A stretch of DNA of 64,000 nt from positions 36,348 through 100,347 of the forward strand of contig VXQZ01000041.1 in assembly GCA_009838735.1 (NCBI GenBank), written 5' to 3'. Each line of letters begins with the position of its first letter. Position 1 is the stretch's first letter. Made by a program: the position numbers and the translations under genes. The notes under the pieces are model-generated. The model was not told where the DNA came from, searched no databases, and saw only the letters and a list, made by a program, of their open reading frames with translations. Positions 6,887 through 33,431 of the stretch are shown here, piece after piece. Source of the stretch: Chloroflexota bacterium. GTDB taxonomy: Bacteria; Chloroflexota; Dehalococcoidia; Bin125.

Positions 6887-6902
6887 GCACTTGATGCGGG
6901 GC
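6882..6902. repeat. REP-like palindrome between convergent genes
   Basis: GCCCCGCA-cttga-TGCGGGGC hairpin. Confidence 0.6.
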
Positions 6903-12324: not shown

Positions 12325-12700
12325 TACAGTTTCTAACATACGACCCGCAGCAGACCGCCAAAACCATCACGAACTTGTCCAAAACTGATCACCCGAATCC
12401 CACGATCTCCAGCAAAACACTGGACTTCCGCTTTTTCTGCCCGCCAGAAAAGTTTTTCCCGCCGATCGTTCCGCTCACCGCTCCGACTCGCGCGTCACGC
12501 ACCCGAACAGAACCGAACAAGCCCGAACACCATTCCTCCCCAGAATCACCGAGAATCACCCGCCCTCACCCAGAACCACACCGACAAAACCCACACATAA
12601 CGAGCCAAATCTGGACAAATCTGGACTCCCCCGGACACAAAACGCGACAATTCCCAGCCCACAGCGCCAGATCCGCCCGATCAGCCCGAATTTCGCCCGG
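12325..12700 (+). repeat. Intergenic element A with 10-bp-phased repeat triads
   Basis: CCGAACA at 12503/12513/12523; TCACC at 12546/12556/12566; GGAC at 12613/12623/12633. Confidence 0.75.
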
Positions 12701-12709
12701 AACGCAACC

Positions 12710-13360
12710 GTGAAGAAGTTCATCCTCTTCGACAACGATGGAGTCCTCGTCGAAACAGAGCCTTGGTACTACCTCGCCACCAGGCGAGCGCTGGCGTCTC
12801 TCGCCCTGGAACTCCCTCGAGACGAGTATCTGGCCAACATGGCCAACGGAGTCTCAGCCTGGCAAGCGGCCCGAGACTCAGCGATGCCGCAAGCGGAAAT
12901 CACGCGCGGCCGAGCACAACGAGACCGCTACTACCGCGATTACCTGATGACGGAAGACATTGAGATCGAAGGCGTAACCGAAACGTTGGCCGAACTGTCA
13001 GAGACGTATCGAATGGCGATCGTCACAACATCCAAGCGACCGGACTTCGACCTGATCCACGAACACCGGTCCATCCTCGACTACATGGAGTTCCACCTGA
13101 CCGAGGAGGATTACCAGCGAGCCAAGCCGCACCCCGAGCCCTATCTGAGAGGACTCCAACGCTTCGGCGCCACCGCCGCCGAGACGGTAGTCGTCGAAGA
13201 TTCAGCCAGAGGCCTCAAGTCGGCAATCGCCGCAGGCATCGACTGCATCGTGGTCGCAAATGACTTCACCGCAACCCACGATCTCTCCCAGGCAACCGCC
13301 AGGGTCGAGACGTTCAGCGACTTGCCCCGAGCGATCAGCAGCCTGGCGAAAGCGCCCTGA
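12710..13360 (+). CDS. HAD family phosphatase
   Basis: FDNDGVLVET, VTTS, KPHPEPY, VEDSARG. Confidence 0.92.
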   Translation: MKKFILFDNDGVLVETEPWYYLATRRALASLALELPRDEYLANMANGVSAWQAARDSAMPQAEITRGRAQRDRYYRDYLMTEDIEIEGVTETLAELSETYRMAIVTTSKRPDFDLIHEHRSILDYMEFHLTEEDYQRAKPHPEPYLRGLQRFGATAAETVVVEDSARGLKSAIAAGIDCIVVANDFTATHDLSQATARVETFSDLPRAISSLAKAP

Positions 13361-13548
13361 GCCCCAGGATGTCGCACAGGCGATAGTGTCCGCACATCTC
13401 CGGCGCTACCTTCTAGGCTTGACTGGACGGGAGGCCGACCAAAGTCTGATAGTGCGTGAAGGCCGCCAGTTTCCCTCCAGGCGGTTCTGATGGCCCTGCG
13501 GACGGGCCCCCGAATGCTCCCACAGTCCGCCTAGATCGATCTCTCCAA

Positions 13549-14676
13549 ATGACCCGCACGGGCACAGAAAACATCCACGATGTCGTTGTCGTCGGCGCTG
13601 GCGCCGCAGGCGTGGGTGTGGCGGTAACGCTGGGACATGCCGGCATCCAGGACGTGGTCGTCCTCGAACGCAACACGGTCGCATCATCCTTCGACGCGTG
13701 GCCGGCCGAGACTCGCTTCATCACACCCTCCTACACCACCAACTCGATCGGCATGCTCGACCTCAACTCGATCGCGATGGGTACCTCTCCCGCGTACAGC
13801 CTGGAGGTCGAGCATCCCACCGGTCAGGAATACGCCAAGTATCTGCGCGCCGTCGCGCACTTCTTCGAGGTCCCTGTCCGCGAACACACTGATGTGCGCT
13901 CGGTCAAGCGGGCCCACCACGGCTTCCGCGTCGATACCTCAGAGGGGGTCGTGCGCGCCAAGCACCTCATCTGGGCCGCTGGCGAGTTCCAGTATCCGTT
14001 CCTCAGCGGGTTCGCCGGCAGCCACCTCTGCCGCCACACTTCGACCATTGCCAGCTATGACGATATCGAGGGCGACGACATCATTATCGTCGGCGGCTAC
14101 GAAAGCGGCATCGACGCGGCCTACCACCTGGCCTATGTCGACAAGCGAGTGCGCGTCTTCGACGTTGAAAGCCCGTGGGAGAGCGAGAGTTCCGATCCCA
14201 GCATCGCGCTGTCGCCCTTCACGGTCGAGCGGATGCGTGAGCGTCCGTTTGTTCAGCAAGTCGAGCTCTACCCAAACACGCCCATTGGATCTGTCACTCG
14301 AGTCGGCGACAGATATGAAGTCATGACGGAGGACGGGCAACGCTTCCAAACGTCCGAGCCGCCGCTCCTGGCAGCCGGATTCGAGGGCAGCACCAAGCTC
14401 GTCGCGGATCTGTTCGAGCAACGCGAGGACGGCTCCCTGCTGCTCAGCGAAGACGACGAATCGACGATCGTGCCCGGCATCTTCCTCTGCGGACCCGAAG
14501 TGCGGCACAACAATCACGTCTTCTGCTTCATCTTCAAATATCGACAACGCTTTGCCGTCGTCGCCAAGGCGATTGCGACGTCCCTGGGCCTGCCCGCGGA
14601 AGAGCTCGAAGAGTATCGCAAGTGGGGCATGTACCTCGACGACCTCTCCTGCTGCGGCCAAGAGTGCGCATGCTAA
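13549..14676 (+). CDS. NAD(P)/FAD-dependent oxidoreductase (TrkA/CzcO/YpdA-like) with Cys-rich C-terminus
   Basis: VVGAGAAG, WAAGEFQYP, GGYESGID; ends DDLSCCGQECAC. Confidence 0.85.
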   Translation: MTRTGTENIHDVVVVGAGAAGVGVAVTLGHAGIQDVVVLERNTVASSFDAWPAETRFITPSYTTNSIGMLDLNSIAMGTSPAYSLEVEHPTGQEYAKYLRAVAHFFEVPVREHTDVRSVKRAHHGFRVDTSEGVVRAKHLIWAAGEFQYPFLSGFAGSHLCRHTSTIASYDDIEGDDIIIVGGYESGIDAAYHLAYVDKRVRVFDVESPWESESSDPSIALSPFTVERMRERPFVQQVELYPNTPIGSVTRVGDRYEVMTEDGQRFQTSEPPLLAAGFEGSTKLVADLFEQREDGSLLLSEDDESTIVPGIFLCGPEVRHNNHVFCFIFKYRQRFAVVAKAIATSLGLPAEELEEYRKWGMYLDDLSCCGQECAC

Positions 14677-14957
14677 AGACGAACGACAAGGGCGGCGGCG
14701 CCCCTGCTGCTCCGACTGCTGCTCCGTCAGTTGCTCCATCTGCTGCCCCGTCTGCAGCCGCGTCTGCTGCATGGCGAGGTCGGCTGGCCAGAGCCCGTAG
14801 CCTGACATGGCTCGGGCAAACGGCCGCCAGCCTGTGCTGGATCAGCAGCATGCTGATCACGGGCGTCGATTCGACCGGGGACTGGTTGCAGCTCTGCGCG
14901 GCCTGCGCCTGGCTCCTGGCCAACATCGCCACGCTCGTCACCGCCCAGGCTGACTGA
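14670..14957 (+). CDS. Small two-TM membrane protein, translationally coupled to the oxidoreductase
   Basis: ATG overlaps the upstream stop; hydrophobic LGQTAASLCWISSMLI...GDWLQLCAACAWLLANIA with typical GC3. Confidence 0.6.
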   Translation: MLKTNDKGGGAPAAPTAAPSVAPSAAPSAAASAAWRGRLARARSLTWLGQTAASLCWISSMLITGVDSTGDWLQLCAACAWLLANIATLVTAQAD

Positions 14958-14989
14958 TAGTCCGCGCTCCTCGGACATCCAACTCCGGT

Positions 14990-15046
14990 CCCCTCTCCCT
15001 GAGGGAGAGGGTTAGAGCCTGCCCCCGCGAAAGCGGGGGGTGAGGG
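14990..15046. repeat. REP/MITE-like composite palindrome
   Basis: CCCTCTCCCTGAGGGAGAGGG...GGTGAGGG with internal CCCCCGC-gaaa-GCGGGGG hairpin, between convergent genes. Confidence 0.7.
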
Positions 15047-15063
15047 CCCGGCTGACCGCCAAG

Positions 15064-16047
15064 TCATCCAAAGATCGACCGTGAACAGAGCAGCGCCGCC
15101 AGCTCGTCCATCGTCTCGAATGGCCGCGGCCGTCCCCGCTCTCTCCAGTAGCTGATCAACTCATCGCCGCCGAAGTCGTGCAGCAGCGACCATGCGACGG
15201 CCCGCTCCGCGAACTGGCTGTCATGGGCCAGGGCAGGGTCGTAGGCGTCGAGGAACGCCCGGGCGAGAACAGGATCCCGCCCGCAAAATCCCGTCCAGAC
15301 CGGCATCCACTCGTACTCCCGCACACCGATCTTGGCGTCGCCGAAGTCGATCAGCGTCTCAATCCGCCAGCCCTCTTCGGACAACGCGCACAGGACATGG
15401 TCCGCGCCGAGGTCTCCATGGACCACAACCCGTGACTCAACGACGTCCGCCGCCATCGCTTCATCGAGCAGTGCTTCGAGCGAACCCACAACTCCAGGAT
15501 CCAGCACTCCAGCGTCCACGAGCTCACCCGCCGCCGCCCGCCGCCGTTGCGACACGACTTCCGACCAGGCCCCCTCGCTTGCGGCATTGGCAAACCGGCT
15601 CACGTCGAGCTCATGCAAGCTCCGCGCCATGCCGCCGAGCTGGGTCGCGATCAACCGGCCCTCGCCGTCGCTGAGCTCGCTCCGCAGCTCCGAGAATGGC
15701 CGGCCGCCGCAGTAACGAGTGATCAGGTAGCTCCAGTCCACCCCGTCGCCGTCGGCAATCTGACCGCAGCCGGTGACCTCGGGCACGGGAATCTCATTCT
15801 GTGAACCAAGCCCCTCCAGTAGCGAGCGCTCGAAATCGAACTCATCCCAGAACGGGCTGTAGATCTTCAGCGCCCACGCTTGGTCGAGCAGGAACACGGC
15901 GTTCGTGTTCGCGCTGGCCGACCGCATCTCCAGATAGCCGATCCCCTCCCGCATGCAAATGGCGTCGACGAGCCCCCGCCAGACCGAGACGTCGTTGTAG
16001 ACCCGCGTCCAGTCGTCCCAACTCTCAATCCGGATTGAAGTCGGCAT
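15064..16047 (-). CDS. Aminoglycoside phosphotransferase-family kinase
   Basis: VHGDLGADHVL and LIDFGD motifs. Confidence 0.85.
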   Translation of the reverse strand: MPTSIRIESWDDWTRVYNDVSVWRGLVDAICMREGIGYLEMRSASANTNAVFLLDQAWALKIYSPFWDEFDFERSLLEGLGSQNEIPVPEVTGCGQIADGDGVDWSYLITRYCGGRPFSELRSELSDGEGRLIATQLGGMARSLHELDVSRFANAASEGAWSEVVSQRRRAAAGELVDAGVLDPGVVGSLEALLDEAMAADVVESRVVVHGDLGADHVLCALSEEGWRIETLIDFGDAKIGVREYEWMPVWTGFCGRDPVLARAFLDAYDPALAHDSQFAERAVAWSLLHDFGGDELISYWRERGRPRPFETMDELAALLCSRSIFG

Positions 16048-16203
16048 CGCTTCGGCTCTCTGGCACGCTCGGCTCGTACGACGGTACCGCGCGCAGTCCG
16101 TCTGTCACCTTCGTCACCTACTGGAAACCTCTCGCCCCATCAGCACATCCGTGCGTATACAATCAACGACGCCTGAGTCCCAACGCCCTGCCCGGCCGCC
16201 CCA

Positions 16204-16390
16204 ATGAACCACGACCAACCATCAACACAAGCCCGAACCACCCCGCACATCCTCGTCCAGGCCAGCACACAGCCGCACAGGTCCGCACAAATCCGTCCAA
16301 AATCGAACAAGTCCAAACAAGCCGGACGCCGGATCCTTCCACGACCTGCCGAAAACCGGTCAAAATTGACCCAAACTGACCCAATTCCCT
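16204..16390 (+). repeat. Intergenic element B with 10-bp-phased repeats
   Basis: gccagcacac/agccgcacag/gtccgcacaa/atccgtccaa/aatcgaacaa/gtccaaacaa (16261-16320); caaaattgac/ccaaactgac/ccaattccct (16361-16390). Confidence 0.7.
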
Positions 16391-16451
16391 GTCAATTGGC
16401 CTCCGAGCAGCCAGATCCCGGTGCGAACGGTCCTGGAATGCCCGGAGCCCC

Positions 16452-17585
16452 TTACCAGACCCTGGGCACAATTCGCCAGGGCACCCGCTCCTGGTACTCG
16501 GCCCATTTCTCCGGCCCGTACTTTTCGGCGCAGGCTCGGTCGTCCTCATACTGGCGCCAGGTAAACATCGTCACCACGAACAGCATGTAGCTCCAGGCCC
16601 AGGGATTGCCGAAGTGGCCGAAACTGAGCGCGATCGCCAGGCCGAACAGGCCCTCGCCGAAGTAGTTGAAGTGGCGCGCGGCGCCCCAAAAACCGTTGCA
16701 CAGGATCTTGCGGTTGCCGGCCTCAATGATCTCCGGCTCGAACCACAGGAACTTGCGATCAGGCCAGCGTTTGAACCAGTACTTCTGCAGACTCGCGCCC
16801 CGCGAGATCGTCCAACCGGTCAGGAACAGCGCCGCCGAGCCGCCCACGATCGCGTACTCCGCAGCGGCCGAGAAGCCCGGATCCGGCTGCGCGGCCATCG
16901 CCCACAGCGGCAGGATGAACAGCCAGCCGTAGACCACCAGACCGCCCCAGAACAGCTTGAAGCCCGTGTTCTCGTGGATCAGGTCGTAGGTGTACAGCTG
17001 CACCCGCTCCCAGATGAAGTAGTCGGTGATGTAGAAGGTGTAGATCCCGGCGTAGAGGAAGACGCCCAGGTTCGCGTCGGCGAAGTTCTCATGGTGCCAG
17101 ACCGCCCCGGAGAGCGCGTTCAGCGACAACATTGCCCCGCCGACGACGTAAAACCACATCTTGACGTCGAAGTACTCGTTGAAGAACGAGAACTCCTGCT
17201 TGCGTCCGAGGTAGAAGGCGATGATCGGGTTCTTCACCTCGCCCTGCGGCTGGCCGAACACGGCGATCAGGGAAAAGATGACGGTGAAGACCGTGCCTCC
17301 GAACACGGCCCAGAGCGACGACCGGTAGAACCAGTCGCGCGGCATTCCCGTCGCCTCGGTCGCCCAGACGATCACCATGATCGCGAAGACCAGGAGCCCG
17401 TTCAGCCGGTACGTGCGCGGCTCACCGGTCTCGGCATTGGTCACGTAGCCGGTCACCTTGCGCGCGGTCAACGCCATTTGTGCCACGACGAACGCCGCGA
17501 AGATGATCAGCGGCGTGAAGAACGCGAGGATCTTTTCCTCCGCTGTCAGGTCGAACAGGTGCTCAATACCAAGAGATTCAATCAT
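16452..17585 (-). CDS. ERG4/ERG24/DHCR7-family sterol reductase
   Basis: Multi-TM; YRLNGL, YDLIHENTGFKLFWG, GFWGAARHFNYFGE, DDRACAEKYG...Y.ERVPWRIVP. Confidence 0.85.
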   Translation of the reverse strand: MIESLGIEHLFDLTAEEKILAFFTPLIIFAAFVVAQMALTARKVTGYVTNAETGEPRTYRLNGLLVFAIMVIVWATEATGMPRDWFYRSSLWAVFGGTVFTVIFSLIAVFGQPQGEVKNPIIAFYLGRKQEFSFFNEYFDVKMWFYVVGGAMLSLNALSGAVWHHENFADANLGVFLYAGIYTFYITDYFIWERVQLYTYDLIHENTGFKLFWGGLVVYGWLFILPLWAMAAQPDPGFSAAAEYAIVGGSAALFLTGWTISRGASLQKYWFKRWPDRKFLWFEPEIIEAGNRKILCNGFWGAARHFNYFGEGLFGLAIALSFGHFGNPWAWSYMLFVVTMFTWRQYEDDRACAEKYGPEKWAEYQERVPWRIVPRVW

Positions 17586-17734
17586 GAGTGAGTACCCCTT
17601 CCGCCGGTTGTCAGGCCATTGTCGCGGATTGCAAACGCCCCTGTGGCGGAAGCGAAACCCCCGCGCAAGTGAGACTTCTAGACTGCGCCCACGCCTCGTT
17701 GGCGCACGTTGAAATCGAATGTTGGAGCGGCGAG

Positions 17735-19027
17735 ATGTTCATCGGATACTTCACCGAGCGGCCCTATCAGGACCCCAACTCCGGCTACTTCGGCGCCGCC
17801 GGTCGCGACATCCAGGACCTCGACCTGAGCAACGGCAGCTATGACCCACGGATCGGCGCCGAGCTGTACAACCGCTACCTGGACGAGAAGGTCTACGCCG
17901 AGGAGATGGGCTTCGACGGCCTGATGCTCAACGAGCACCATTCCACCCCGTTCTGCATGGGCGGCGTGATGAACGTCGAAGCCGCGATCCTTGCTCGGAT
18001 CACCAAGCGGGCCAGGATCGTGTTGCTTGGCAATGTCCTGCCGATCTGGGACGACCCGCTCTGGTTGGCTGAGGAGTTGGCCGAAATCGACATGATCTCA
18101 CGCGGTCGCCTGGTCAGTGGCTGGGTGCGCGGCACGGGCCGCGAGAGCGTGGCCCACAACACCGCCTCGCCCTTTAACTGGGATCGCTATCAAGAGGCGC
18201 ACGATTTCATCGTCAAGGCTTGGACCACGCCCGGACCCTTCCGCTGGGAAGGCGAGCACTACCAGTACCGCTACGTCAATCCCTGGGCCCGCCCCTACTC
18301 CGATCCTCATCCGCCGATCTGGATTCCCGGCGTGATGAGCCGCAACACGGTCAAATGGGCTGCCGAGCGGCGCTATCCCTACGTCATGCTCGCCACCGAT
18401 ATCGAGCCGACCAAACAGTCCTTCGACTACTACCGCAACTGCGCCCGCGAAGCCGGCTACGAGGCCGGCACCCAGCATACGGCATACCTGTTCAAAGTCC
18501 ACGTCGACGAGACCGACGAACTGGCCGAGGACACCGCGCGCAAGTATCTCCAGGGACCGAGCAACCCCTTCCTCGAGGGCAACCAGGGCAAGGTCCGGCC
18601 GTTCCTCCAGTCCCTGCCGGGACTGACGTCACGCACCGATGTCCTGCCGACTTCCCAGATTCGCGCGATTGCGGCGTCACGTGGACGCACCGAGCGTCGC
18701 CAGGCGCTGACGGGGGCGGCGCAGCCGGCCGAACCGCGCGACTATCGCGGCACCCTCCAGGAGCAGGTCGACAAGCTCAGCATCATCCACGGCACGCCGG
18801 CGACCGTGCTGCCCAAGATTCGTCACGTGCTGGAAGAGTTGCGCCCCGGCGCGATCATCTTCTGGGATGGCGATGGCTCGATGAGTCACGACGACGCCAT
18901 GCGCAGCCTGCGGCTGATGGGCGAAGAGGTCCTGCCCGCCGTCCGCGAAATGGGCGCTGAACTCGACCTCAACGGCCCATTCGAGATCGATCCGGCCAAC
19001 AATGAGCCCATCGCCGGCGCCGGCTGA
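17735..19027 (+). CDS. LLM class flavin-dependent oxidoreductase
   Basis: GFDGLMLNEHH, LAEELAEIDMISRGRL, PHPPIWIPG. Confidence 0.9.
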   Translation: MFIGYFTERPYQDPNSGYFGAAGRDIQDLDLSNGSYDPRIGAELYNRYLDEKVYAEEMGFDGLMLNEHHSTPFCMGGVMNVEAAILARITKRARIVLLGNVLPIWDDPLWLAEELAEIDMISRGRLVSGWVRGTGRESVAHNTASPFNWDRYQEAHDFIVKAWTTPGPFRWEGEHYQYRYVNPWARPYSDPHPPIWIPGVMSRNTVKWAAERRYPYVMLATDIEPTKQSFDYYRNCAREAGYEAGTQHTAYLFKVHVDETDELAEDTARKYLQGPSNPFLEGNQGKVRPFLQSLPGLTSRTDVLPTSQIRAIAASRGRTERRQALTGAAQPAEPRDYRGTLQEQVDKLSIIHGTPATVLPKIRHVLEELRPGAIIFWDGDGSMSHDDAMRSLRLMGEEVLPAVREMGAELDLNGPFEIDPANNEPIAGAG

Positions 19028-19075
19028 GTCGAACCCGGCCGGCATTCGCCGCTGGTAGGTCGGGCAGGGCGAACC

Positions 19076-20437
19076 ATGCTCGTCCATTCGCAACAGATGC
19101 GGCGACGCCTGGCCCGCAACATTCCCGTCTACTACCTCTTCTACGGCGTCAGCGGCTTCCTCATCTGGATGCCGATTTGGGTCATCTACCTGCAGGATTT
19201 CCGCGGCATGAGCCTCACCCAGGTCGCCGCGATCGAGTCGATCTTCTGGATCACGGTGGTGGTCGCCGAAGTGCCGAGCGGCGCGGTCGCCGACCGCTGG
19301 GGTCGCCGAGTCTCCCTCGCGTTCGCTGGAGGGATCTTCTGCCTCGGATCGGTCGTCTTCGCGTTCAGCTCTTCCTACGTCATCCTGCTCGCCGCCTACG
19401 TCATCGTGGCCCTCTCCATGACCCTCTACTCCGGCGCCGGACCTGCCCTCGTCTACGACCCGCTCAGACAGCTCGGACGGACCAGAGAGTACGAAAAGCA
19501 CATCGGACGCTCCGAAGCCCTCGCGTTCGGCTCCATGCTGATCGCGACCTTGCTCGCCGGGCCTCTCGTCGCACTGGTCGGCTATTCGGCGACGATCCTG
19601 CTCGGCGCGATCGCCATGGGCATTGGTGGTCTTGTCGCCCTGCTCCTGCGCGAGCCGCCGCGTAGTGAGGCGGAGATCGCTGGTCGCCAGCATGGTCAGA
19701 ACGGTGTTGCCGCGGCTCCGAACAGACCCGGTCTGTTCCGCAACATGCTCGGCGGCATGCTGGTTGTTTGGCGCAGCAAGCTGCTGCTCTGGTACATCCT
19801 CCTCGCCACGCTTCTCTCCGGCGTGATCATGATCGTCAGCGACTTCCTTCTGCAACCGTTCGTCGTCCACCACGGCGTCAACCCGGCGAGCGGCGTCGAT
19901 TCCGGCTTCGCCTACTCGGGCATCCTGATGTCGCCGGTGGCCGGCATGGTCGTCGGCTCGCTGATCGCCGCCTGGGTCGCCAGTCGATTCGGCGAGCGGC
20001 GTTCGCTCATCCTCTCCCTCTTCGCCGCCGCCCTCCTCTTCCTCGTGCCAACGCTCTGGGAATCGCTCTGGGTGGTCGGAGCGATCGGTCTGCTCGCCGC
20101 CATCCGCGGCATGACGCGTCCGATCGCGACCGGCTACATCAACCGGCGCATCCCCTCAGATCAGCGCGCGACCGTGCTCTCGATGTTTGAACTCTCGGCT
20201 GCGTTGATCATCGCCATCATCCTGCCCCAGGCGGGAGCGGTGGCCGATTCAGTCGGCTTCCAGGCTTCATTCGGCCTGCTCTTGCTGATTCTGGTCGGGG
20301 CCGGCGGACTGTTCGCCCTGGTCTGGCGCCTGCTTCATGGTCGCGAGCAACGGCGTCTGGCGCTCACAATGCAGGCGCAGGCCAAACCCCAGGCCGGGTC
20401 CGTCCACGCCGCAGGCTCGACGACACCTGATCGCTAA
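19076..20437 (+). CDS. MFS transporter
   Basis: EVPSGAVADRWGRR motif A; about 12 hydrophobic segments. Confidence 0.9.
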   Translation: MLVHSQQMRRRLARNIPVYYLFYGVSGFLIWMPIWVIYLQDFRGMSLTQVAAIESIFWITVVVAEVPSGAVADRWGRRVSLAFAGGIFCLGSVVFAFSSSYVILLAAYVIVALSMTLYSGAGPALVYDPLRQLGRTREYEKHIGRSEALAFGSMLIATLLAGPLVALVGYSATILLGAIAMGIGGLVALLLREPPRSEAEIAGRQHGQNGVAAAPNRPGLFRNMLGGMLVVWRSKLLLWYILLATLLSGVIMIVSDFLLQPFVVHHGVNPASGVDSGFAYSGILMSPVAGMVVGSLIAAWVASRFGERRSLILSLFAAALLFLVPTLWESLWVVGAIGLLAAIRGMTRPIATGYINRRIPSDQRATVLSMFELSAALIIAIILPQAGAVADSVGFQASFGLLLLILVGAGGLFALVWRLLHGREQRRLALTMQAQAKPQAGSVHAAGSTTPDR

Positions 20438-22545: not shown

Positions 22546-22631
22546 AATGAGAGTAGCGCAACCGCGCCACGGTTGTAACCAGCGGAGCAGCAGCTGTTCA
22601 ACGGATGGAGACCAGGGAGCGGTTTGGGCAG

Positions 22632-23147: not shown

Positions 23148-23374
23148 CCTCAGGTCTCCTCGCGTCCAGCATGCCATGAGGGCGGTCGCCGCGCGTCGCC
23201 GAGTTGCAGGGCAGGGTTGACGATTGACGTGGGTTTGACAGTCGGAGGGGATGATCAGCCTGGGGGCCGTAGGCGCCTCTGCGCAAATCCCGCTTGCTCT
23301 GACCGATGCCGCCCTGTCTATGTAGCGTCGCGGTAAACTCGCCAATCGGGGTTGGGGCGATCTGTGGCTATTCC

Positions 23375-25060: not shown

Positions 25061-25075
25061 ATCAGGACAGCGTTC

Positions 25076-25987: not shown

Positions 25988-26035
25988 AGTCACTGGCCTT
26001 GAGGGCAGGCGTCACTGACGTGTAAGGGCCATCCG

Positions 26036-26437
26036 ATGAAGTTCACCTTCGTGGGGTTTCAGGGGTCCAGCGACTTAACCACCCTGCCCGACACATGGGC
26101 GAAGTTCGGTGCCAGCGCGTTGGCTGAGCTACCGGACCACTCCTGCGTTTACGTCCCCGATGGCGTTGGCGTGACTCATTTCATTGGTGTGTCAACCGCG
26201 AATATCCTCGAGCACATTCCAGTGGAGGACTTCGATTCCCTCGAAGTGGAGTATGAGTTCCTGACGACCCGAATCCTGAAGGCGGAAACAGAAGAGGAGT
26301 TGGCCCGGAAAATCTACGAGTTTTGGACCAGGGACCACTATGAGGTCGAGCACGCGATCCCGGGCGGAATCGAGATTCACAAAGTCGATCTACAAGGGAG
26401 GAGCTACGCCGAGCTCATCCTGACTCTGAGTGAGTAG
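26036..26437 (+). CDS. Hypothetical protein (possibly GyrI-like effector-binding fold)
   Basis: 133-aa ORF filling the intergenic space; weak resemblance only. Confidence 0.5.
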   Translation: MKFTFVGFQGSSDLTTLPDTWAKFGASALAELPDHSCVYVPDGVGVTHFIGVSTANILEHIPVEDFDSLEVEYEFLTTRILKAETEEELARKIYEFWTRDHYEVEHAIPGGIEIHKVDLQGRSYAELILTLSE

Positions 26438-26488
26438 CGCCCGGCTTCGCCGGAGCGGCCCGGCTGATGGCTCAGGTCAAGGGAATCC

Positions 26489-26986
26489 TTACCCCTGGCT
26501 GGAGGATCCGCGTAGCACCGACTCGAACACTTCGAGTGTCCGCTTTGTGAAGAGCCACATGTTCTCTTCCCGATCCTCGAGGCCGGTTTCGAGCGTCTCG
26601 ACATACTCACTAGGCCCGGTGATCGCGATGCAAGTGTGGCCCGAGGCGTCGCCGTAGACGTTGCCGCCGGGTCCGGCGGCGCCCGTTTCTCCGATGCCCC
26701 AGGTGGCTCCCAGGCGCTCGCGGATGGTCTCGGCGATGATCTTCGCGTAGGGCTCGCTGCTGGAGCGGACTCCCGGATAATCGTCGAGTTCTATCTCGAG
26801 GAACGTGGATCGCGCGACGCCGGTGTACGTGACTGCCGCTCCGGCGTAGTAGCGCGATGCACCGGGGATAGAGAGCAACGCGGCCGAGACCAGGCCTCCC
26901 GCGGTGGTCTCGCAGATTGCGACTGTCTCACCTCGTTCTCGGAGCAAACGAGCGATGTGCTCGGCCATCGGTTGCAGTGGTTCCAT
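26489..26986 (-). CDS. CinA/PncC family protein
   Basis: TVAICETTAGGLVS, PGASRYY, GETGAAGPGG. Confidence 0.85.
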   Translation of the reverse strand: MEPLQPMAEHIARLLRERGETVAICETTAGGLVSAALLSIPGASRYYAGAAVTYTGVARSTFLEIELDDYPGVRSSSEPYAKIIAETIRERLGATWGIGETGAAGPGGNVYGDASGHTCIAITGPSEYVETLETGLEDREENMWLFTKRTLEVFESVLRGSSSQG

Positions 26987-27066
26987 GTCTGGCTTCCGTC
27001 CTGAACTCTCTTACTCGGTGTAGCGGCTAGTATCGCGGCAGGCTGCATGAGATAGAGGAGGCCGCC

Positions 27067-27885
27067 ATGAATACCCCGATCCGCGCCCACGTTGTGGTCG
27101 GAGGCTTCCCTCCGGGCCAACACGCCGGGCATGACATGGATTACGCGCGGATGCGCATCCTGATGGCGCTGCAGTCGAATGAGAACGTGCACACGACCGT
27201 GAGCAGCGACTTCACCGACTGCCACAAGTGGATCCGGGACGCACACCTCTTGATTTGCTACGTCGCCGGACCGTTCGCCGACGACTACCAGACCGGCGTG
27301 ATCCGCGACTGGCTCGGCGACGGCGGGCGCTGGCTGGCGTTGCACGGCTCGACCGGCGGCAAGGCCGAGCGTCTTGGCCGCGAGGACGGCCGTCGCCGGA
27401 TGGCCAAGATGGACTACCACGAGGCGCTGGGCGGATTCTTCATGACCCACCCGCCGATCCGGGAGATGGACGTCAAGGTCTCGGATCACAACCACCCGTT
27501 GACCTACAACCTGCCCGGCAACTTCCCGGTCCAGGACGAGCCCTACATGGTCGAGGTGATCCATCCCGACACGCAGGTCCTGCTGACGACCGAGGATGTC
27601 GAGAAGCCGCCAATCGTTGACGAGCTCTACGGTGGCGACCTCTCGCTGCTGCCCGACGGCAAGTCGCATGCGCTCGGCTTCGCGCGCAAGGTCGGTGAGG
27701 GCGAGATCGCCTACATCGCGCCGGGCCACTGTCACACGCCATTGACGAATGGCCAGCAATCGGTCCACGAGAGCATCTCGCCGGATGGCAAGGTCCCGCT
27801 CCGCTTCCGAGGTCCGTGGGAGACCGAGCCATACGAGCAGTTGCTGAAGAACGCGATCGATTGGGGCACCGGTGTCAACGGCTAG
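27067..27885 (+). CDS. ThuA-like domain protein
   Basis: GGRWLALHGS, LGGFFMTHPP, DEPY, YIAPGH; GAGGAGG RBS. Confidence 0.8.
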   Translation: MNTPIRAHVVVGGFPPGQHAGHDMDYARMRILMALQSNENVHTTVSSDFTDCHKWIRDAHLLICYVAGPFADDYQTGVIRDWLGDGGRWLALHGSTGGKAERLGREDGRRRMAKMDYHEALGGFFMTHPPIREMDVKVSDHNHPLTYNLPGNFPVQDEPYMVEVIHPDTQVLLTTEDVEKPPIVDELYGGDLSLLPDGKSHALGFARKVGEGEIAYIAPGHCHTPLTNGQQSVHESISPDGKVPLRFRGPWETEPYEQLLKNAIDWGTGVNG

Positions 27886-29362
27886 TCCCGCCGACCTGGA
27901 GCATCTCGCTGAACTGCGGCGTCGAAGAGACGAGTTCTTCGCGCCGAATCCTGAAGGTGACGAGCGGGCCCACAGCCGGGGCCTGTTGACCGCCAACGAG
28001 CGAATCGAGCTGCTGCTCGATCCGGGCAGCCAGTGGGCGTTCAGTTACGGCCTGGGGCCGACACCGCTGCAGCTGGGCTTTGGCGAAATCCACGGCCGGC
28101 CGGTGCTCTACAAGGCGCACGACGCGTCACGAGGCGCGGGCGCATACAATCTGCGCTCGCGGGTCAATATGCGGGCCGTCGGACATATTGTCGACAAAGC
28201 CGCGCTGCCAATGTTCTACCTGTTCCAGGGAGCGGGCGGACAGATCGAGGACCACGTCATGTCCTCGGGATTCTCGGCCGTCGGTGGGCACAACGTCGGC
28301 GCGCGATCGAGCGTGCCTCGGCGAGGTGGCGTGTTCACCGCGATCCTCGGCAACTCGTTTGCGCCCTGGGCGGCGTCGGTGGCCGACTTCTCGGTGATGA
28401 CTCCGCGCGCGACAGCGACGTTCGTTAGTCCGTACATCATCGAGTTCGCCACCGGCAAACGCCCTGACCTCTATGAGATGGGCGGCGTTGATGTCCATAC
28501 CAAGATGACCGGACAGATTTGCCGACGGGCGGAGGACGAAGCGGAAGCGATGGAGACGCTGCGCACTTGTTTCTCGTACCTGCCCGGCCACGCGTTCGAG
28601 TCGGCGCCGCGGATCATGAGCGGCGATCCCAGAGATCGCTGCGACGAGGAGTTGCGGTCGCTGGTACCGAAGTATCCGAACCGTCCCTATGAGGTGCGCA
28701 AGATCATCGAGCGGGTCGTGGACCGGGACAGTTTCTTCGAGTGGCAGCCCGAGTTCGGCATGAACATGGTGACGGGCTTCGCCCGCCTTGACGGGCATAC
28801 GGTTGCGATCATGGCCAATCAGCCAATGGTTCGCGGCGGCGCGATCGACATGAACGCGCTGATCAAGGCGCGGCGGATCATCAAGACCGCCCGAACCTTC
28901 TCGCTGCCGCTGCTCACGTTCTGCGACACGCCTGGGATCATGACGACGCAGGAGGAAGAGCACAAAGGGCTGCTGACTGAGACCACGGTCTACATCTCGG
29001 ACAAGATGGCATCCGAGGTACCGACCGTCTGCGTCACGCTGGGCAAGGGCATTGGGATGGGCTACTTCATCATGGGCGGCAGCGACCCGGAGGCGATCAC
29101 ACTCTCCTGGCCCACGACGCAGATCGCATATCTCGGTCCCGAAGGCGGGGCCGCGGTGGTGCATCGCAAGAAACTCGCGGGGATCGAGGATCGCGACGAC
29201 CACCGACTCCTGCTGGATGAATTGGCCGAGCCGTTCAGGCGCAATATGAATCCCTGGCGCGGCGCGCAGATGGCCACGATTGATAACATCATCGACCCGG
29301 TCGAGACGCGGCCGCGGGTCATCCAGGCGTTCGAAGCGCTGGGACGAGGGGGACGCAGATGA
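27872..29362 (+). CDS. Acyl-CoA carboxylase/decarboxylase carboxyltransferase subunit (divergent)
   Basis: LTANERIELLLDPGS, MGGVDVH, VTGFARLDG, ANQP, DTPG, IIDPVETR. Confidence 0.85.
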   Translation: MSTASPADLEHLAELRRRRDEFFAPNPEGDERAHSRGLLTANERIELLLDPGSQWAFSYGLGPTPLQLGFGEIHGRPVLYKAHDASRGAGAYNLRSRVNMRAVGHIVDKAALPMFYLFQGAGGQIEDHVMSSGFSAVGGHNVGARSSVPRRGGVFTAILGNSFAPWAASVADFSVMTPRATATFVSPYIIEFATGKRPDLYEMGGVDVHTKMTGQICRRAEDEAEAMETLRTCFSYLPGHAFESAPRIMSGDPRDRCDEELRSLVPKYPNRPYEVRKIIERVVDRDSFFEWQPEFGMNMVTGFARLDGHTVAIMANQPMVRGGAIDMNALIKARRIIKTARTFSLPLLTFCDTPGIMTTQEEEHKGLLTETTVYISDKMASEVPTVCVTLGKGIGMGYFIMGGSDPEAITLSWPTTQIAYLGPEGGAAVVHRKKLAGIEDRDDHRLLLDELAEPFRRNMNPWRGAQMATIDNIIDPVETRPRVIQAFEALGRGGRR

Positions 29363-30792
29363 CAACTCGACGCCAGCGGCACGTCAGTCCGGAAAAGAAC
29401 CTGACCATCGCGGAGCGCCTCCAGCGCGTTGACGATGAGCGCGCGCACATCGAGGCGTTTGATCGCGAGCGAGAGTTAGAGGCGGGCCAGTTGACCCCGC
29501 GCCAGCGGGTCGAGCTGATGGTCGATGAGGGGTCATTCCTCGAGATTGGCGCGTTTGCCAAGAGCCAGCACCATGAAGTCGCCGAAGAGACGCCGGCCGA
29601 CGGAGTGATTGTCGGCTACGCGGAGATCTCGGGACGGCGGACCGTTGTGATTGCGGAAGATCCGATCGCCCTGGCGAACTCCGACGCGCAGGTGGGCAAG
29701 AACAAGCGCAACCGCATGCTCTCCAATGCGATCTATCGGCGCTTGCCGATCGTCTACCTGGCCGATGGCACAACGGATGAGGTTCCCGAGTTCGACCTCC
29801 ACGCCGGAGTACTGCTGAGCCGCGTGGCTGAGCAGTTGCCGGCCCGCGACATCGCCGAGCGTGAGGCACCGCTGGTGACGGTCGCCTGCGGTCACTGCGC
29901 CGGTCAGAACAGTGCGCTGGCGGTGCGCTCGGACTTGCTGGTGGCGACTGATCGCGCCGCCTTCGGGGCGCAGGAAGGCTCAGCCGAGTCGGTAGCCGAC
30001 CTGGTCTGCGATAGCGATGCCGAGGCGATCGGCGCCGCGCGGCGGTTTCTCGCGACGCTGCCAGCCGAGCTTGGCTCGGCGTTGGCGCCGCTCGGCGGCG
30101 CGTCATCCGAGGCTGCGCTCAACCTCACCGATGAAGACATGCACGCTTCGCCGCGGGAGCAGATGGATGCGATCTTCGACGCCGGCAGCATCACCTTGCT
30201 TGGTCCGGACGACGAACACTGCGCGGTCGGCGTGGGCCAGGTTGAAGGTGTCCCGGTCGCTTTCGCGTTGACCGGAGGGCCGCCTCGAGCGGCGCTGACG
30301 ACGGCAGACATGAAGCGAATCGCACGCGCGGCCTCGTGGAGCGCCGACTACCAGATTCCGTTTCTCTCGACCCAGGACACGCTGGGCTACGACCCGGTCG
30401 ACGCCGCGAGCGGCGAGTTCATGTTTGCCGCCGCACGCGCCGCCGAGTCGCTGCGCGCCTCGCACGCGGCGAAGATTACGATCATCACGGGCTGGGGACA
30501 CGCGCTCGGCGACTTCGCGCTCGGCGGCATGGGCACCGGATTCGACTTCATCTGGTGCTGGCCGTCGGCCCGGCCGGCGATGACCGAAAGTCCAGGTTAT
30601 CTGGCCCGCGATCCTGAGTCACCACCCTCCGAGGATCCATGGGAGGCCGCCGACCTGGGGCTCGTCTCGGAGATGATCACCCCGGCCGACACTCGTTCGT
30701 GGCTCGTGAGAGCCTTGCGTCTGCTTGGTCCGGGCCGAGCATTGCCTGCGGCGCACTATGACCGCGGTCAGCAGATCCACGACATGACGTGA
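29359..30792 (+). CDS. Second, degenerate carboxyltransferase-like subunit
   Basis: LTPRQRVELMVDEGSFLEIG, PADGVIVG, ITPADTR; catalytic-region motifs eroded; ATGA-coupled. Confidence 0.75.
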   Translation: MTTRRQRHVSPEKNLTIAERLQRVDDERAHIEAFDRERELEAGQLTPRQRVELMVDEGSFLEIGAFAKSQHHEVAEETPADGVIVGYAEISGRRTVVIAEDPIALANSDAQVGKNKRNRMLSNAIYRRLPIVYLADGTTDEVPEFDLHAGVLLSRVAEQLPARDIAEREAPLVTVACGHCAGQNSALAVRSDLLVATDRAAFGAQEGSAESVADLVCDSDAEAIGAARRFLATLPAELGSALAPLGGASSEAALNLTDEDMHASPREQMDAIFDAGSITLLGPDDEHCAVGVGQVEGVPVAFALTGGPPRAALTTADMKRIARAASWSADYQIPFLSTQDTLGYDPVDAASGEFMFAAARAAESLRASHAAKITIITGWGHALGDFALGGMGTGFDFIWCWPSARPAMTESPGYLARDPESPPSEDPWEAADLGLVSEMITPADTRSWLVRALRLLGPGRALPAAHYDRGQQIHDMT

Positions 30793-30851
30793 GCCGACAA
30801 CGATCACATTGGTACTGAACAGTCAGCCGATTCGTAAGCAAGGAACAGACG

Positions 30852-31676
30852 ATGACATACACCGCCATCGAGTTTGAGACCGACGGTCCGATCGCCACAA
30901 TCACGATGGACCGACCGGACAAGCGCAACGCGCTCAACCACGCCCTCCTCGACGACCTCCTCGCCGCGCTCGATGCCGTCGCCGATGACGACTCGCTCAA
31001 GGTCGCCATCCTTCGCGCCAATGGTCCCGCATTCAGCGCCGGGTACGACATTGACGGCAGCCCCTATATCAATACGCCCGACGGCGACTCCGAGTGGAAC
31101 ATCGTCAACGGGCACAAGCACCAACGGATCATGCGCGGGATCTATGAGGCGATCTGGGACAATCCCAAGGTGATCATCGCCCAGATTCAGGGCCACGCAA
31201 TCGCCGGCGGGATGTACATCTCGATGCTCTGTGACCTGGTCGTGGCGGCTGACGAAGCCATGATCGGCGAACCGTTCATGCGCATGGGCGGGGCCAGCTC
31301 GATCCCGTTCTGGAGCTACCTCGTCGGCCCGCGTCGGGCCAACGACATGCTGTTCACCGGCCGCGTGCTTTCGGGCAAGGAAGCCGAGGAGTGGGGTCTG
31401 GTCACGCGCAGTGTGCCGGGAGCGGAACTCGATCAGACCGTCCGCGAGATGGCGGAGAGCGTCGCGGAAGCGCCGCTGGCGAGTCTGCTGACGAAGAAGG
31501 AGATGTGGCACACCCAGGCCGACATGCTCGGCTGGGGCGCGCAGTTCCGCTACACGACCAGCCTGAACTCGTGGCTACGGATGGCACCGCCTCCGCCGGA
31601 CAGCGCCGGCAGCATGCGTGATTTCATGAACCAGCGCAAAGCGCAGCAGGCGCGGGGCGAAGCGACCGACTACTAG
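30852..31676 (+). CDS. Enoyl-CoA hydratase/isomerase family protein
   Basis: DRPDKRNAL, FSAGYD, GHAIAGG. Confidence 0.9.
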   Translation: MTYTAIEFETDGPIATITMDRPDKRNALNHALLDDLLAALDAVADDDSLKVAILRANGPAFSAGYDIDGSPYINTPDGDSEWNIVNGHKHQRIMRGIYEAIWDNPKVIIAQIQGHAIAGGMYISMLCDLVVAADEAMIGEPFMRMGGASSIPFWSYLVGPRRANDMLFTGRVLSGKEAEEWGLVTRSVPGAELDQTVREMAESVAEAPLASLLTKKEMWHTQADMLGWGAQFRYTTSLNSWLRMAPPPPDSAGSMRDFMNQRKAQQARGEATDY

Positions 31677-33070
31677 AGCTCCGGGTTGCGCATGAAGTCG
31701 GTCGCCTGCTCGTAGGAGTAGCCGGCCCGGCATAGGGCCTGCTCGCTGCCCAGCGGGCCGACGAGTTGCAGCGCCATCGGCAGACCTTGTTCGCTCCAGC
31801 CGTTGGGAAGGGTCAGGGTCGGCGCCCGGTTCATGTCCCAGGGCGCCGTGTATTGCAGCCGCGACCACTGGAACTCGCCCGGCGTGTCGTCGTACATCAT
31901 GTCTTCGGTCACCTGGTGCGGCAACGTGCCCTGCGCCGAGCAGGCCAGCATGTCGATATCGGCGAAGACCCGCGCCAGCCGGCCGCGCAGCTCCTCGCGA
32001 CGGATGCAGGCGTCGGCGTAGTCGGTCGCGCTGACCGAGGATCCGAGTTCTAGCCAGGCCCCGAACCAGTTGCCGTAATCGCCGGCTCGGCTGGGGTAGT
32101 TATCCAGGTGGGCGTGCAGCGCCTCGACAGAACAGAGCGTCGGCCAGTCGGCCATGTACGGTTCGAAATCCGGCAACTGAACCGAGACGATCTCCGCGCC
32201 CAGCGAAGCCAGCGTCTCGACCGACGCCGCCACCGCTTCCGCGATCGGCGGGATCACTTCCTCGGTCGCATAGCGCTCGTCGTAGCCGATGCGCATACCG
32301 GCGACGCCGGCGTTGATTCCGTCGAGCATCGAGGGAGCCGGTTCGGGGAGCGTGGTCGGATCGTTCGGATCGTCGCCGGCGATCACCTCAAGGGTCACGG
32401 CGCAGTCCCAGGTCGAACGGCACATCGGTCCGACGTGATCCAGCGACTGAGCCAGGTCGAGCACGCCGTAGCGGCTGACCCGTCCCCAGGTCGGCTTGAG
32501 CCCCACGATGCCGCAGGACGCCGACGGACCACGAATCGAGCCGCCGGTGTCGCTGCCCAAGGAGGAGTAGCAAAGACCGGCCGCCGTGGCCACGCCGGAA
32601 CCACTGGATGAGACTCCGGTCCAGCGCCCACCGTCCCAGGGATTGACCGGCACCTGACGGGCGCGGTTGTATCCGGCCATTGCCCCCTCCGTCAGGTTGA
32701 GCTTGCCCAGCATGACGGCTCCCGCGTCTTTGAAACGCGCGACGACGGTGGAGTCGAAGTCGGGAACGAAGTCTTCCAGCACCTTCGTGCCGCCCATGGT
32801 GGGCACGCCAGTCGTGTAGCAGAGGTCCTTGACCGCGATCGGAATCCCGTGCAGCGGGCCTCGATAGTTGCCCGCCGCGATTTCATCCGCGGCCTGCTGC
32901 GCTTCGGCGAGCGCTGAATCGGCCATCACCGTGGCGTAGCTCTTGAGCCGGCCGTCGTGGGCTGCGATGCGGTCGAGCTGTGCCTGGGCCAGTTCAACCG
33001 GCGACAGTTCGCCGGAGGCGATGCGCGGGGCCAGCTCCTCAATCGTCGCGTAGGCGAGTTCGTTGGTCAC
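31673..33070 (-). CDS. Amidase signature family protein
   Basis: GPLHGIPIAVKD, GVSSSGSG, LGSDTGGSIRGP. Confidence 0.93.
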   Translation of the reverse strand: MTNELAYATIEELAPRIASGELSPVELAQAQLDRIAAHDGRLKSYATVMADSALAEAQQAADEIAAGNYRGPLHGIPIAVKDLCYTTGVPTMGGTKVLEDFVPDFDSTVVARFKDAGAVMLGKLNLTEGAMAGYNRARQVPVNPWDGGRWTGVSSSGSGVATAAGLCYSSLGSDTGGSIRGPSASCGIVGLKPTWGRVSRYGVLDLAQSLDHVGPMCRSTWDCAVTLEVIAGDDPNDPTTLPEPAPSMLDGINAGVAGMRIGYDERYATEEVIPPIAEAVAASVETLASLGAEIVSVQLPDFEPYMADWPTLCSVEALHAHLDNYPSRAGDYGNWFGAWLELGSSVSATDYADACIRREELRGRLARVFADIDMLACSAQGTLPHQVTEDMMYDDTPGEFQWSRLQYTAPWDMNRAPTLTLPNGWSEQGLPMALQLVGPLGSEQALCRAGYSYEQATDFMRNPEL

Positions 33071-33139
33071 GGGGCTTCTCCGATTCCTTGTTGCATCTGG
33101 AGGTTTGGCGATGGGCTGTCAACAGCTGTTCGGAAGGAA

Positions 33140-33431
33140 GAAGAAATTGACTGAATTCAGGTTTCTGCGAAATTATTTTTTCTGGGCCTCTTCGGCCACG
33201 ATCTTCAGCCATGCGCTGGAGATCGTTGACGAAGACGTTCAGGTTTTTTCGGGTTTTTTCAGGTTTCTTCAGGTCGGTAGCGTTCGGATTCGTTCGGATG
33301 TGTTCGGCTATGGCTGGGCACGTTCCGGCTGCGCGGCGGCGGTGCAGGATGTTGCGGGCGCTGGCCGAAGGGTGGGCGGAGTGGCTGGACGTCCTGTTGG
33401 GCGTGGTTGGTCGTAAGCTCATATGTTCTCA
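33140..33431 (-). repeat. Intergenic element C with 10-bp-phased repeats (inverted relative to A and B)
   Basis: ttcaggtttt/ttcgggtttt/ttcaggtttc/ttcaggtcgg (33238-33277); gttcggattc/gttcggatgt/gttcggctat (33282-33311). Confidence 0.75.

Follow-up and report, generated by a model that had tools for sequence, protein, structure and literature searches.

What are the runs of imperfect 10-mers that fill three intergenic tracts of a Chloroflexota genome, and do they act on the genes around them? The stretch analyzed here, called the window, is 64,000 nucleotides of contig C23 of the study genome (G000:C23:36348-100347), a 3.15-Mb assembly of 56 contigs that is 96.6% complete. Tracts A (12325-12700, plus strand), B (16204-16390, plus strand), and C (33140-33431, minus strand) had been singled out from the letters of the window by an original prediction, which described them as successive blocks of such 10-mers that share words with one another. 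The decamer structure is real and extends far beyond the window. The tracts belong to a modular, multi-copy, and lineage-restricted family of non-coding intergenic elements of ~170-500 bp, and the description of this family as propagating, modular, oriented, and non-coding is solid. The function that we favor for it, a promoter/leader cassette that propagates, is tentative, and we give it somewhat less than an even chance.

The lag autocorrelation of each tract was judged against 500 dinucleotide shuffles. Identity at lag 10 reached z values of +3.5, +6.7, and +5.9 in tracts A, B, and C, and identity at lag 20 reached +4.1, +3.9, and +2.8. Lags 5-8 and 11-18 stayed within ~1.7 sd, and lag 9 was raised in A (+2.4) and C (+2.6). 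Tandem Repeats Finder (TRF) placed period-10 arrays within all three tracts, and a three-unit CYGRAMA pattern had 4 window matches compared to 0.00 expected. The shared words were also located. ACGATCTCCAGC occurs at 12402 (plus) and 33215-33226 (minus), and at one mismatch or fewer it has 4 window matches against 0.71 expected, a count that 0 of 100 shuffles reached. ACGACCAACCA occurs at 16211 (plus) and 33404-33414 (minus), 2 matches compared to 0.01 expected. Reading the sequence places CCAGAAAA after ACGATCTCCAGC at offsets of 42 nt in tract A and 41 nt in tract C, and a CCGAAC triad is present in both. The -10-like hexamers said to precede the tracts are TACAGT (12325-12330), TACAAT (16158-16163), and TACTCT (the reverse complement of 33431-33436). 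The blocks and the shared words were seen as the original prediction described them, and both words far exceed their counts in shuffled controls. Two of its details need revision. The tracts lie where they were placed, but their ends do not, because the motif of tract C runs to 33436 and that of tract B lies at 16140-16175; and the blocks are genuine, but their cores are mostly variants of one decamer and not a different core for each block. A+C makes up 69-73% of one strand of the tracts; the G+C content of the genome is 64%. The plus strand of tracts A and B is 40% C and 16% G, and the sense (minus) strand of tract C is 35% C and 21% G, compared to a genome background of ~32% each. Among 62,794 genome windows, this excess of C over G ranks in the top 0.2-0.9%.

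The 10-bp period stands out across the genome. TRF returned 285 period-10 arrays compared to 106 at period 8 and 112 at period 11, and in non-genic DNA the count was 148 compared to 21, 42, 29, and 40 at periods 8, 9, 11, and 12. Exact 6-mer triads, counted with a poly-C run removed, numbered 145 at spacing 10 compared to 11, 28, 12, and 56 at spacings 8, 9, 11, and 12. Three units dominate, CCGAACA, CCTGAAA, and TCTGGACA, each a variant of CYGRAMA, and the units are defined as N (CCGAACAnnn), K (CCTGAAAAAA), and W (ATCTGGACAA). The register is strict: neighboring CCGAAC words are paired 71 times at spacing 10, 10 times at spacing 9, and 4 times at spacing 11, and pairs at spacing 10 number 56 for CTGGAC and 22 for CTGAAA. 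The 148 non-genic arrays comprise 39 N, 39 W, 14 K, and 56 others, many of them one-step variants. Arrays of at least three units total 88 (50 N, 24 W, and 14 K), and the number of units varies between 3, 4, and 5. The N core is invariant and positions 8-10 are variable; therefore, the units are not fresh slippage copies. Judged by its letters, the CYGRAMA core resembles a -35 hexamer. A literature search on decanucleotide repeats and on repeats of this type in Chloroflexi or in sponge symbionts, supplements excepted, returned nothing relevant, and the family is previously undescribed. N-type CCGAAC repeats at mixed 9- and 10-nt spacing also occur inside an apparently real gene (C39:77358-78974, minus strand, study genome), where they accompany an E/Q/S-rich low-complexity linker of a lipoprotein-like product; therefore, a few of the 'arrays' are coding. 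Separately, CCCCCC recurs at all tested spacings (82-159 triad matches) and CCCCCCCC occurs 312 times in the non-genic DNA of the study genome. Its long poly-C and poly-G runs are possibly assembly artefacts.

The arrays are parts of two kinds of composite element. A K-type element consists of 3-4 N units, 3-5 K units, a palindrome, a variable small hairpin, GAAAAAAAGTT, and a last unit, AACCTGAA. Fourteen full K-type copies are alignable over ~170 nt, and the genes that follow them are unrelated (amidase, SpoU methylase, heme A synthase, enoyl-CoA hydratase, SDR, DinG-like helicase, and others). The K-type palindrome is ACGATCTCCAG-CAAAACA-CTGGAGATCG, with the loop inverted in 3 copies, and the AACCTGAA of the terminal unit is invariant in 16/16 K-type copies. 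The phase between neighboring N and K arrays, read from the alignment, varies by 3-6 nt. W-type copies align over ~270 nt. They start with TAC[GC]AT-CAGAACATATG, carry up to 8 phased CTGRNC units after 105-130 nt, and end in a related palindrome and CCCGAAAATTCCCC. The palindrome of the elements is imperfect and contains GATC, and it is followed by an A-run and one last unit. The 5' motif is a TAnnnT hexamer, at times with TGn before it, followed by CAGAACATATG. It stands 105-130 nt upstream of 12/24 W clusters, 7 of which reach E<=0.14 in nhmmer, and it was found within 450 nt downstream of 0/60 clusters. The motif also opens a 500-bp element of a second genome, G056 (TGCTACACT..CAGAACA), in which it is followed by 4-7 perfect TTGACA words at 10-11 bp, three inverted GTCAAC words, 4-5 CYGAACA units, an A-run, and a last unit. 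Two genes of ordinary appearance carry the same motif at their start codons; from their N-terminal sequences we take them to be DegV-like and Lhr-like.

The distribution of the elements is patchy and their turnover shows between close relatives, uncultured Chloroflexota/Dehalococcoidia metagenome-assembled genomes. Reversed-pattern controls gave zero matches in every array search across genomes. K arrays were found in 14/24 other genomes of the genus and in 0/16 other families of the class, W arrays in 16/36 genus genomes, and N arrays in 27/36. The three types vary independently, as in G008 with 32 K, 21 N, and 0 W matches. A four-unit pattern is present in 2/10 genera of the family with 0 to ~147 matches per genome (147 in G056), and TTGACA runs occur in only 2/65 family genomes, with 53 pattern matches in G056. 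Filled and empty orthologous sites, which the original prediction had proposed to look for, were found at the amidase, HAD-hydrolase, and SpoU loci. The amidase site next to tract C is filled in 3/26 orthologous loci, those of G000, G019, and G005, and thus in the closest relatives only; in relatives at 95% protein identity the spacer is ~50 bp. Of the 10 best HAD loci, 2 carry tract A in full, 1 carries half of it, and 7 lack it. The SpoU site is empty in G019, the closest relative. Two orthologous slots, flanked by homologous sequence, hold a K array in one species and an N array or a AATTGATCAA array in the study genome. Seven 500-bp copies in G056 are ~91% identical pairwise, their flanks are unalignable (42-57%), and the copies differ from one another by steps of 10 and 21 nt. 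Copies at different loci of the study genome are similar as well (tract A and C40, 84% over 79 nt; tract C and C43, 82% over 72 nt). The body of tract B is 93% identical to G019 and 79% to G045, compared to 63% and 62% for the neighboring positions 16048-16139, and its arrays have at most one gap of 1 nt over 187 nt in three species while the flanks are gapped. By these values, tract B is under some constraint. REP-like palindromic repeats share these spacers. GTAGGGGCGACCCTTGTGGTCGCCCGC is present in several relatives (L036-L051, amidase upstream regions), and CCGTCATTCCTGCGCAGGCAGGAAC of G056 (L156-L185) often flanks or interrupts the 500-bp element as inverted pairs.

The arrays are oriented with respect to transcription. 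In co-directional spacers, 37 arrays of at least three units run along the flanking genes and 4 are opposed (binomial p 1e-7), counts that rest on our own crude GC3-based gene calls (2,570 genes, 85% coding). Divergent spacers hold a further 11 arrays and convergent ones 7. K arrays aim at a downstream start in 14/14 cases, at distances of 95-426 nt and in 12/14 at 120-185 nt. Several arrays in operon-like spacers lie 4-23 nt from both flanking genes. The 150-nt spacer between an argD-like (acetylornithine-aminotransferase-like) and an argG-like (argininosuccinate-synthase-like) gene at C18:66255-66405 consists nearly completely of ~10 N units, which begin 4 nt past the stop and finish 19 nt short of the start. 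A K-type element stands upstream of a three-gene cluster (C43:21667-24660) whose third gene encodes Rho (C43:23383-24660; Rho_RNA_bind, E 1e-28). In a replichore look at G056, hit strands were mixed over 0.03-1.9 Mb and all listed hits were on the plus strand at 1.9-2.93 Mb.

The reading that we tentatively prefer is a cassette that moves between genes. The element would spread to new intergenic sites, apparently without a transposase; it is lost again, and its arrays change by slippage and exchange between copies. In the study genome it survives almost only where local transcription has the C/A-rich strand as its sense strand. It would most likely act as a 'mobile promoter', with transcripts that begin at the 5' motif, pass through a leader poor in G, T, and structure, and continue into the next gene. 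The sequences show the family, its anatomy, distribution, turnover, and orientation bias, and its non-coding nature, and from them we infer transcription from the 5' motif, the regulatory effect, and the mode of spread. A precedent exists in the 'putative mobile promoters', homologous upstream sequences before unrelated genes whose mobilization is unknown (commentary PMC3575422; Matus-Garcia, Nijveen, van Passel 2012). That set was defined by BLAST similarity alone in the -150 to -50 region, most of its members have no Rfam match, and their function is uncertain (PMC3575422). The decamer elements likewise place homologous non-coding DNA before unrelated genes, in one genome and in related taxa. 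Their similarities before non-homologous genes (90% over 73 nt, 84% over 79 nt, and 82% over 72 nt in the study genome; 91% in G056) compare to a threshold of at least 80% over at least 50 nt for such promoters, and by sequence the family appears to fit the published notion. Unlike the published set, the decamer elements have a defined modular anatomy, species-specific bursts, and array turnover. The BOX, ERIC, Correia, and REP/REPIN repeats are short, multi-copy, intergenic, patchy, and often co-transcribed with an orientation bias, and the number of internal modules in BOX is variable. The same commentary names them as promoter-carrying repeats (PMC3575422). The decamer elements resemble them in being short, multi-copy, non-coding, modular, oriented, and patchy, but differ in that no terminal inverted repeats or target duplications were seen, that the study genome has no RAYT/Y1 gene, and that their body consists of tandem decamers instead of hairpins. 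If the cassette reading is true, uncultured Dehalococcoidia-class Chloroflexota hold a system that evolves fast and places copies of a promoter/leader module before unrelated metabolic genes, a concrete and dissectable case of mobile promoters.

A number of observations weigh against this interpretation, beginning with the crude gene calls beneath the orientation counts. Fourteen arrays aim at a gene end, and tract B is opposite to both of its neighbors. The TTGACA-type elements in a 15-locus sample from G056 are unbiased, with 3 toward a start and 4 toward an end. Some arrays fill operon spacers such as argD-argG, in which a promoter would be unnecessary. The 5' motif is present on only 2/14 K-type copies, and translation from its ATG ends after 9-24 nt in several copies. 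A simple sigma-70 scan of tracts A, B, and C found no canonical -35/-10 pair in sense orientation, and its single match in tract C falls on the other strand. No RNA run matched the stretch; five runs of an unlabelled kind contained 0.24-0.29 of the sampled words. As neither a Y1 transposase nor a reverse transcriptase was found, and neither terminal inverted repeats nor target duplications, the only evidence for mobility comes from patterns of presence/absence and copy number. The terminal unit of the K-type elements, called the Q box, was considered as a -35 element and rejected, as a TAnnnT hexamer stands 16-18 nt downstream in only 2/14 copies of the study genome (by eye). Terminators were not detected on the sense strand of any of the three tracts.

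Three other explanations compete with the cassette or may refine it. In the first, a sequence-specific protein binds the head-to-tail units of an array along one helix face, as the original prediction had also suggested. We regard this as possible, though doubtful. An OmpR/PhoB-type response regulator and sigma region 4 are the candidate proteins, the latter because of the likeness of the cores to -35 hexamers. In this case the cassette would be a movable module that activates or represses from upstream, and the phased A-tracts of the K arrays would add intrinsic curvature. The strict register of the CCGAAC pairs, the fixed N core with variable positions 8-10, and the nearly gap-free arrays of tract B between gapped flanks in three species favor docking on DNA. 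So do the likeness of CTGGACA, CTGAACA, CTGAAAA, and TTGACCC to TTGACA, the runs of 4-7 perfect TTGACA in G056, and a perfect 14-bp palindrome in tract B. OmpR, CpxR, and pho boxes are tandem direct-repeat operators, and the OmpR and CpxR subsites are 10 bp. Binding of ArcA, an OmpR/PhoB family member, to three direct repeats is documented (PMC4173790). As in those operators, the arrays consist of a 6-7 bp core, a 3-4 bp variable or A-rich spacer, and 3-6 head-to-tail units at 10-11 bp, and their orientation matters. Operators of this type lie upstream of a -35 region or overlap it. Unlike the operators, the arrays ride on a dispersed repeat, often lie in operons or downstream of the promoter-like motif, ~110 nt downstream in W-type elements, and have cores that differ between species at one slot; K arrays are 95-426 nt from starts. 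Arrays 4-23 nt from both genes of probable operons leave no room for a downstream promoter. The N-to-K phase shifts of 3-6 nt, the exchange of one array type for another at a single slot, and the C/A-rich skew that reaches past the arrays also speak against this reading, and its cognate protein was not identified. The core, the spacer, and the register fit the binding sites of the original prediction, and the arrays in operon spacers speak against a role upstream of a promoter.

The second explanation moves the function from DNA to RNA. Unstructured C-rich, G-poor transcripts would be Rho entry (rut) sites or ribosome standby sites, making the elements directional attenuators or terminators. 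This idea is improbable, with several features in its favor. The extreme C-over-G excess of the sense strand, the 37-to-4 bias relative to transcription, and the tolerance of operon spacers for arrays are consistent with a role in the transcript. The genome encodes Rho behind a K-type element, and CsrA and Hfq were not found in it; a CsrA or Hfq sponge is rejected on the same grounds. Folding agrees as well. RNAalifold returned 0 pairs in 16 K-type copies and only trivial pairs (-5.4 kcal/mol) in 16 W-type copies. A comparison with Rfam was negative both for the window, at the gathering score, and for the tracts, where the limit was relaxed to E<=1, and the H palindrome decays with stem mismatches that are not compensated. 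These data do not support the structured RNA family that the original prediction had offered as an alternative. Rut sites are described as C>G bubbles with 60-80 nt of single-stranded RNA and YC dimers on 9-13 nt linkers (PMC6144790). The sense strands of the tracts are likewise C-rich, G-poor, and unstructured over 60-400 nt with regular YC dimers. The 10-nt unit leaves linkers of 8 nt, just beyond the 9-13 nt of the description, with further YC dimers within the units. Unlike rut sites, which are without consensus and do not form repeat families, the arrays are specific decamers at an exact 10-nt register, and a flexible RNA ligand leaves that register and the specific cores unexplained. The W units contain GG, and the TTGACA arrays of G056 are not C-rich.

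The third explanation is that the elements are selfish or neutral miniature elements bearing minisatellites, without host function, in which period 10 descends from one ancestral decamer. Their orientation bias would arise only from purging of the opposite orientation, whose transcripts would carry U-runs, GUG and UUG starts, and G-U-rich structure. We consider this unlikely and no better placed than the Rho reading. Species-specific bursts and the absence of the elements from many congeners keep it alive. It would also explain the 10- and 21-nt changes in copy number, the relatedness of the cores as expected from common descent, the unbiased orientation of the TTGACA-type copies in G056, and the absence of a conserved structure or known RNA family. 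Its difficulties are that tract B is clearly better conserved than the adjoining non-coding DNA, that cores are kept while spacers drift, and that 12/14 K-type start distances fall within a narrow 120-185 nt.

As to whether the decamers act as DNA or as RNA, the family offers opposing clues. The strict register, conserved cores, -35-like words, and TTGACA runs favor, as sequence features, protein docking on one DNA face. The C-rich and G-poor sense strand, the lack of structure, the operon tolerance, and the Rho gene favor a possible RNA role such as Rho entry. The exact register, -35-like cores, and array swapping make the elements a test bed for action through DNA (docking and curvature) or RNA (Rho entry and standby). 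A bolder form of the cassette reading is transposase-free mobile regulatory DNA, in which the decamers present one -35-like docking site per turn to sigma region 4 or a cognate activator. The elements would be portable 'polymerase antenna' promoters, and bursts such as the TTGACA runs would rewire dozens of genes. This is speculative, and we think it quite improbable. Least credible of all, and very unlikely, is that the tracts encode low-complexity peptides or N-terminal extensions. The rarity of T keeps several frames open. One spans tract C between the motif ATG (33422) and 33039, another at 12297-12713 ends in a GTGA overlap with the HAD start, and N-type repeats do lie in the coding region C39:77358-78974. 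Against this reading, no frame is kept among copies, unit numbers vary between 3, 4, and 5, motif-ATG frames end after 9-24 nt in several copies, and orthologous tracts differ by single-base indels (2 between C and G019; 2 between A and L061). The same indels and variable unit number uphold the original view that the tracts are non-coding. A translated leader starting at the motif ATG was rejected as well, as the frames measure between 9 and 1143 nt and do not end consistently at the start codon that follows.

Known repeat classes and possible drivers of spread were compared with the elements. The assertion that they are not CRISPR was borne out, and they do not appear to be REP either. The decamers are contiguous, in contrast to CRISPR arrays, whose 23-55 bp repeats alternate with unique spacers of similar length. 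The repeated unit of REP/REPIN is an imperfect palindrome of 20-40 nt; the element includes one 27-nt imperfect palindrome (H), but is for the most part a non-palindromic tandem repeat. The study genome does contain a genuine CRISPR-like repeat, a different ~27-nt word, GTTCCCCCGCACACGCGGGGATAGACC (8-mers assembled by eye), with ~125 occurrences in non-genic DNA; we take it to be a CRISPR repeat of type I-E style. The suggestion of relic ends of a mobile element held in part: the population behavior fits it best, but the copies are whole elements and not ends. Neither a transposase nor the terminal inverted repeats and target-site duplications of a MITE were found. The sharp ends of seven G056 copies (CCCCCACTTCCCCC.. 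and ..CCGAACACCGCCGCCGCC) are not mutually inverted and have no flanking duplication, and comparison of filled with empty amidase and SpoU sites gave no terminal inverted repeats or target duplications (both by eye). Mobilization by IS200/IS605 or RAYT was rejected, as PF01797 (Y1_Tnp) is absent from the study genome and gave weak matches in 2/37 genus genomes. SINE-like retroposition was rejected too; RVT_1 was not found in G056, G055, G052, and G003, and the sole match in the study genome is weak (C14:39419-39934, 30.2 bits, inside a 1262-aa open frame). Phage or plasmid carriage was set aside after the K and W patterns gave 0 matches in viral contigs and none in plasmid or phage collections. 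Iterons were dismissed, as the units are 10 nt and not 17-22 bp, occupy dozens of loci, and have no replication initiator among the neighbor genes examined. A multi-copy terminase-like gene was also rejected as a driver because its copies (0-7) do not track the arrays. G056 has 1 copy with 146-147 array matches; the array-free G003, G044, and G050 have 1 terminase-like gene each, and G012 likewise has 0 array matches. This gene is present in 1-7 copies in 45/65 family genomes. A box, CAGAACATA[TC]GTAC, which is close to a GAAC-N4-GTAC palindrome, stands after a C/A-rich stretch and before a small ORF. The box occurs in the study genome at C15, C12:27068, C41:295, C44:118, C21:19850, C55:245, C13:86541, C22:5390, and C4:87. 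On C15 it is followed by a terminase-large-subunit-like gene (Pfam Terminase_3, 28.3 bits), and many box copies are at contig ends.

Within the window, tract A lies between a DNA-methylase gene (11156-12124, minus; Pfam N6_N4_Mtase, E 7e-43) and a HAD-hydrolase gene (12710-13360, plus) and is a mosaic of a palindrome module, an N array, a TCACC array, and a W-type tail. Comparison by eye with the motif set suggests that it opens with a degenerate 5' motif, TACAGT followed by TTCTAACATACG (12325-12345, plus). Its H module (12401-12459, plus) was recognized by exact word match, blastn, and nhmmer. The module contains the imperfect palindrome ACGATCTCCAG-CAAAACA-CTGGAC and, after it, a T-run/A-run hairpin (CTTTTTCTG..CAGAAAAG) followed by GTTTTTCC. 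A 70-80 nt piece of it matches at least 8 other loci at 72-84% identity (blastn), and nhmmer matched the module to C23:48740-48806. The N array, CCGAACAnnn x3 (12501-12529, plus; TRF and pattern match), is present in orthologues L059 and L061 and absent from L060, and the AGAATCACCG-type array of 2-3 units (12542-12570, plus; TRF) is present in all three. The W-type module (12606-12700, plus; TRF and pattern match) consists of CAAATCTGGA x2 with CCGGACA, a degenerate palindrome, and CCCGAATTTCGCCC, and it stops 9 nt before the hydrolase start (GTG at 12710). It is 90% identical over 73 nt to C38:24182-24253, and at least 10 further loci match. A separate copy of the 5' motif, GTATGA with GAGAACATATG, reads leftward at 12137-12151 (minus), 13 nt upstream of the methylase start codon (12124). 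Its own ATG opens a 3-codon mini-ORF, ATG AGC CGA TAG (12122-12151).

Tract B lies between two minus-strand genes, for an APH-type kinase and an ERG4/ERG24-like reductase, and is therefore opposite in direction to each. It is headed by a conserved block (16140-16175, plus) that contains TACAAT and is 89% identical to G019 and 69% to G045. The body (16204-16390, plus) combines N-like units with the pre-array segment of a W-type element. It contains ACGACCAACCA, six N-like units at 16273-16328 (CCGCACA, CCGCACA, CCGTCCA, TCGAACA, CCAAACA, and CCGGACG, plus), TTGACCC/CTGACCC units, and the perfect 14-bp palindrome GGTCAAAATTGACC (16358-16371). Tract C is a full K-type copy upstream of the amidase gene (31673-33070, minus; Pfam, E 3e-102). 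Its 5' motif, TGC-TACTCT (extended -10-like) followed by GAGAACATATG (33420-33436, minus; nhmmer E 0.0017), is 107 nt upstream of its N array, CCGAACnnnn x3 (33280-33307, minus; TRF and copy alignment). The K array follows, CCTGAARAAA x4 with phased A-tracts (33236-33274, minus; TRF, alignment, and pattern match). The segment at 33172-33226 (minus) holds the H palindrome (33198-33226), a GGCC..GGCC hairpin (33185-33197), and an A-run (33172-33183), and the Q box AGAAACCTGAATTCAG (33151-33166, minus) precedes the amidase start (33070) by ~80 nt.

The elements also have practical consequences for annotation. Repeats of this kind break assemblies, several copies lie at contig ends, and long spurious ORFs run through the tracts because T is rare. 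Two other repeats are present elsewhere in the window, a 22-bp tandem repeat of 2.5 copies (CCGACGCCCCGACATCAACCCT) at 6833-6887 and a 12-bp repeat of 5.6 copies at 14704-14770 that is intergenic by our own gene calls.

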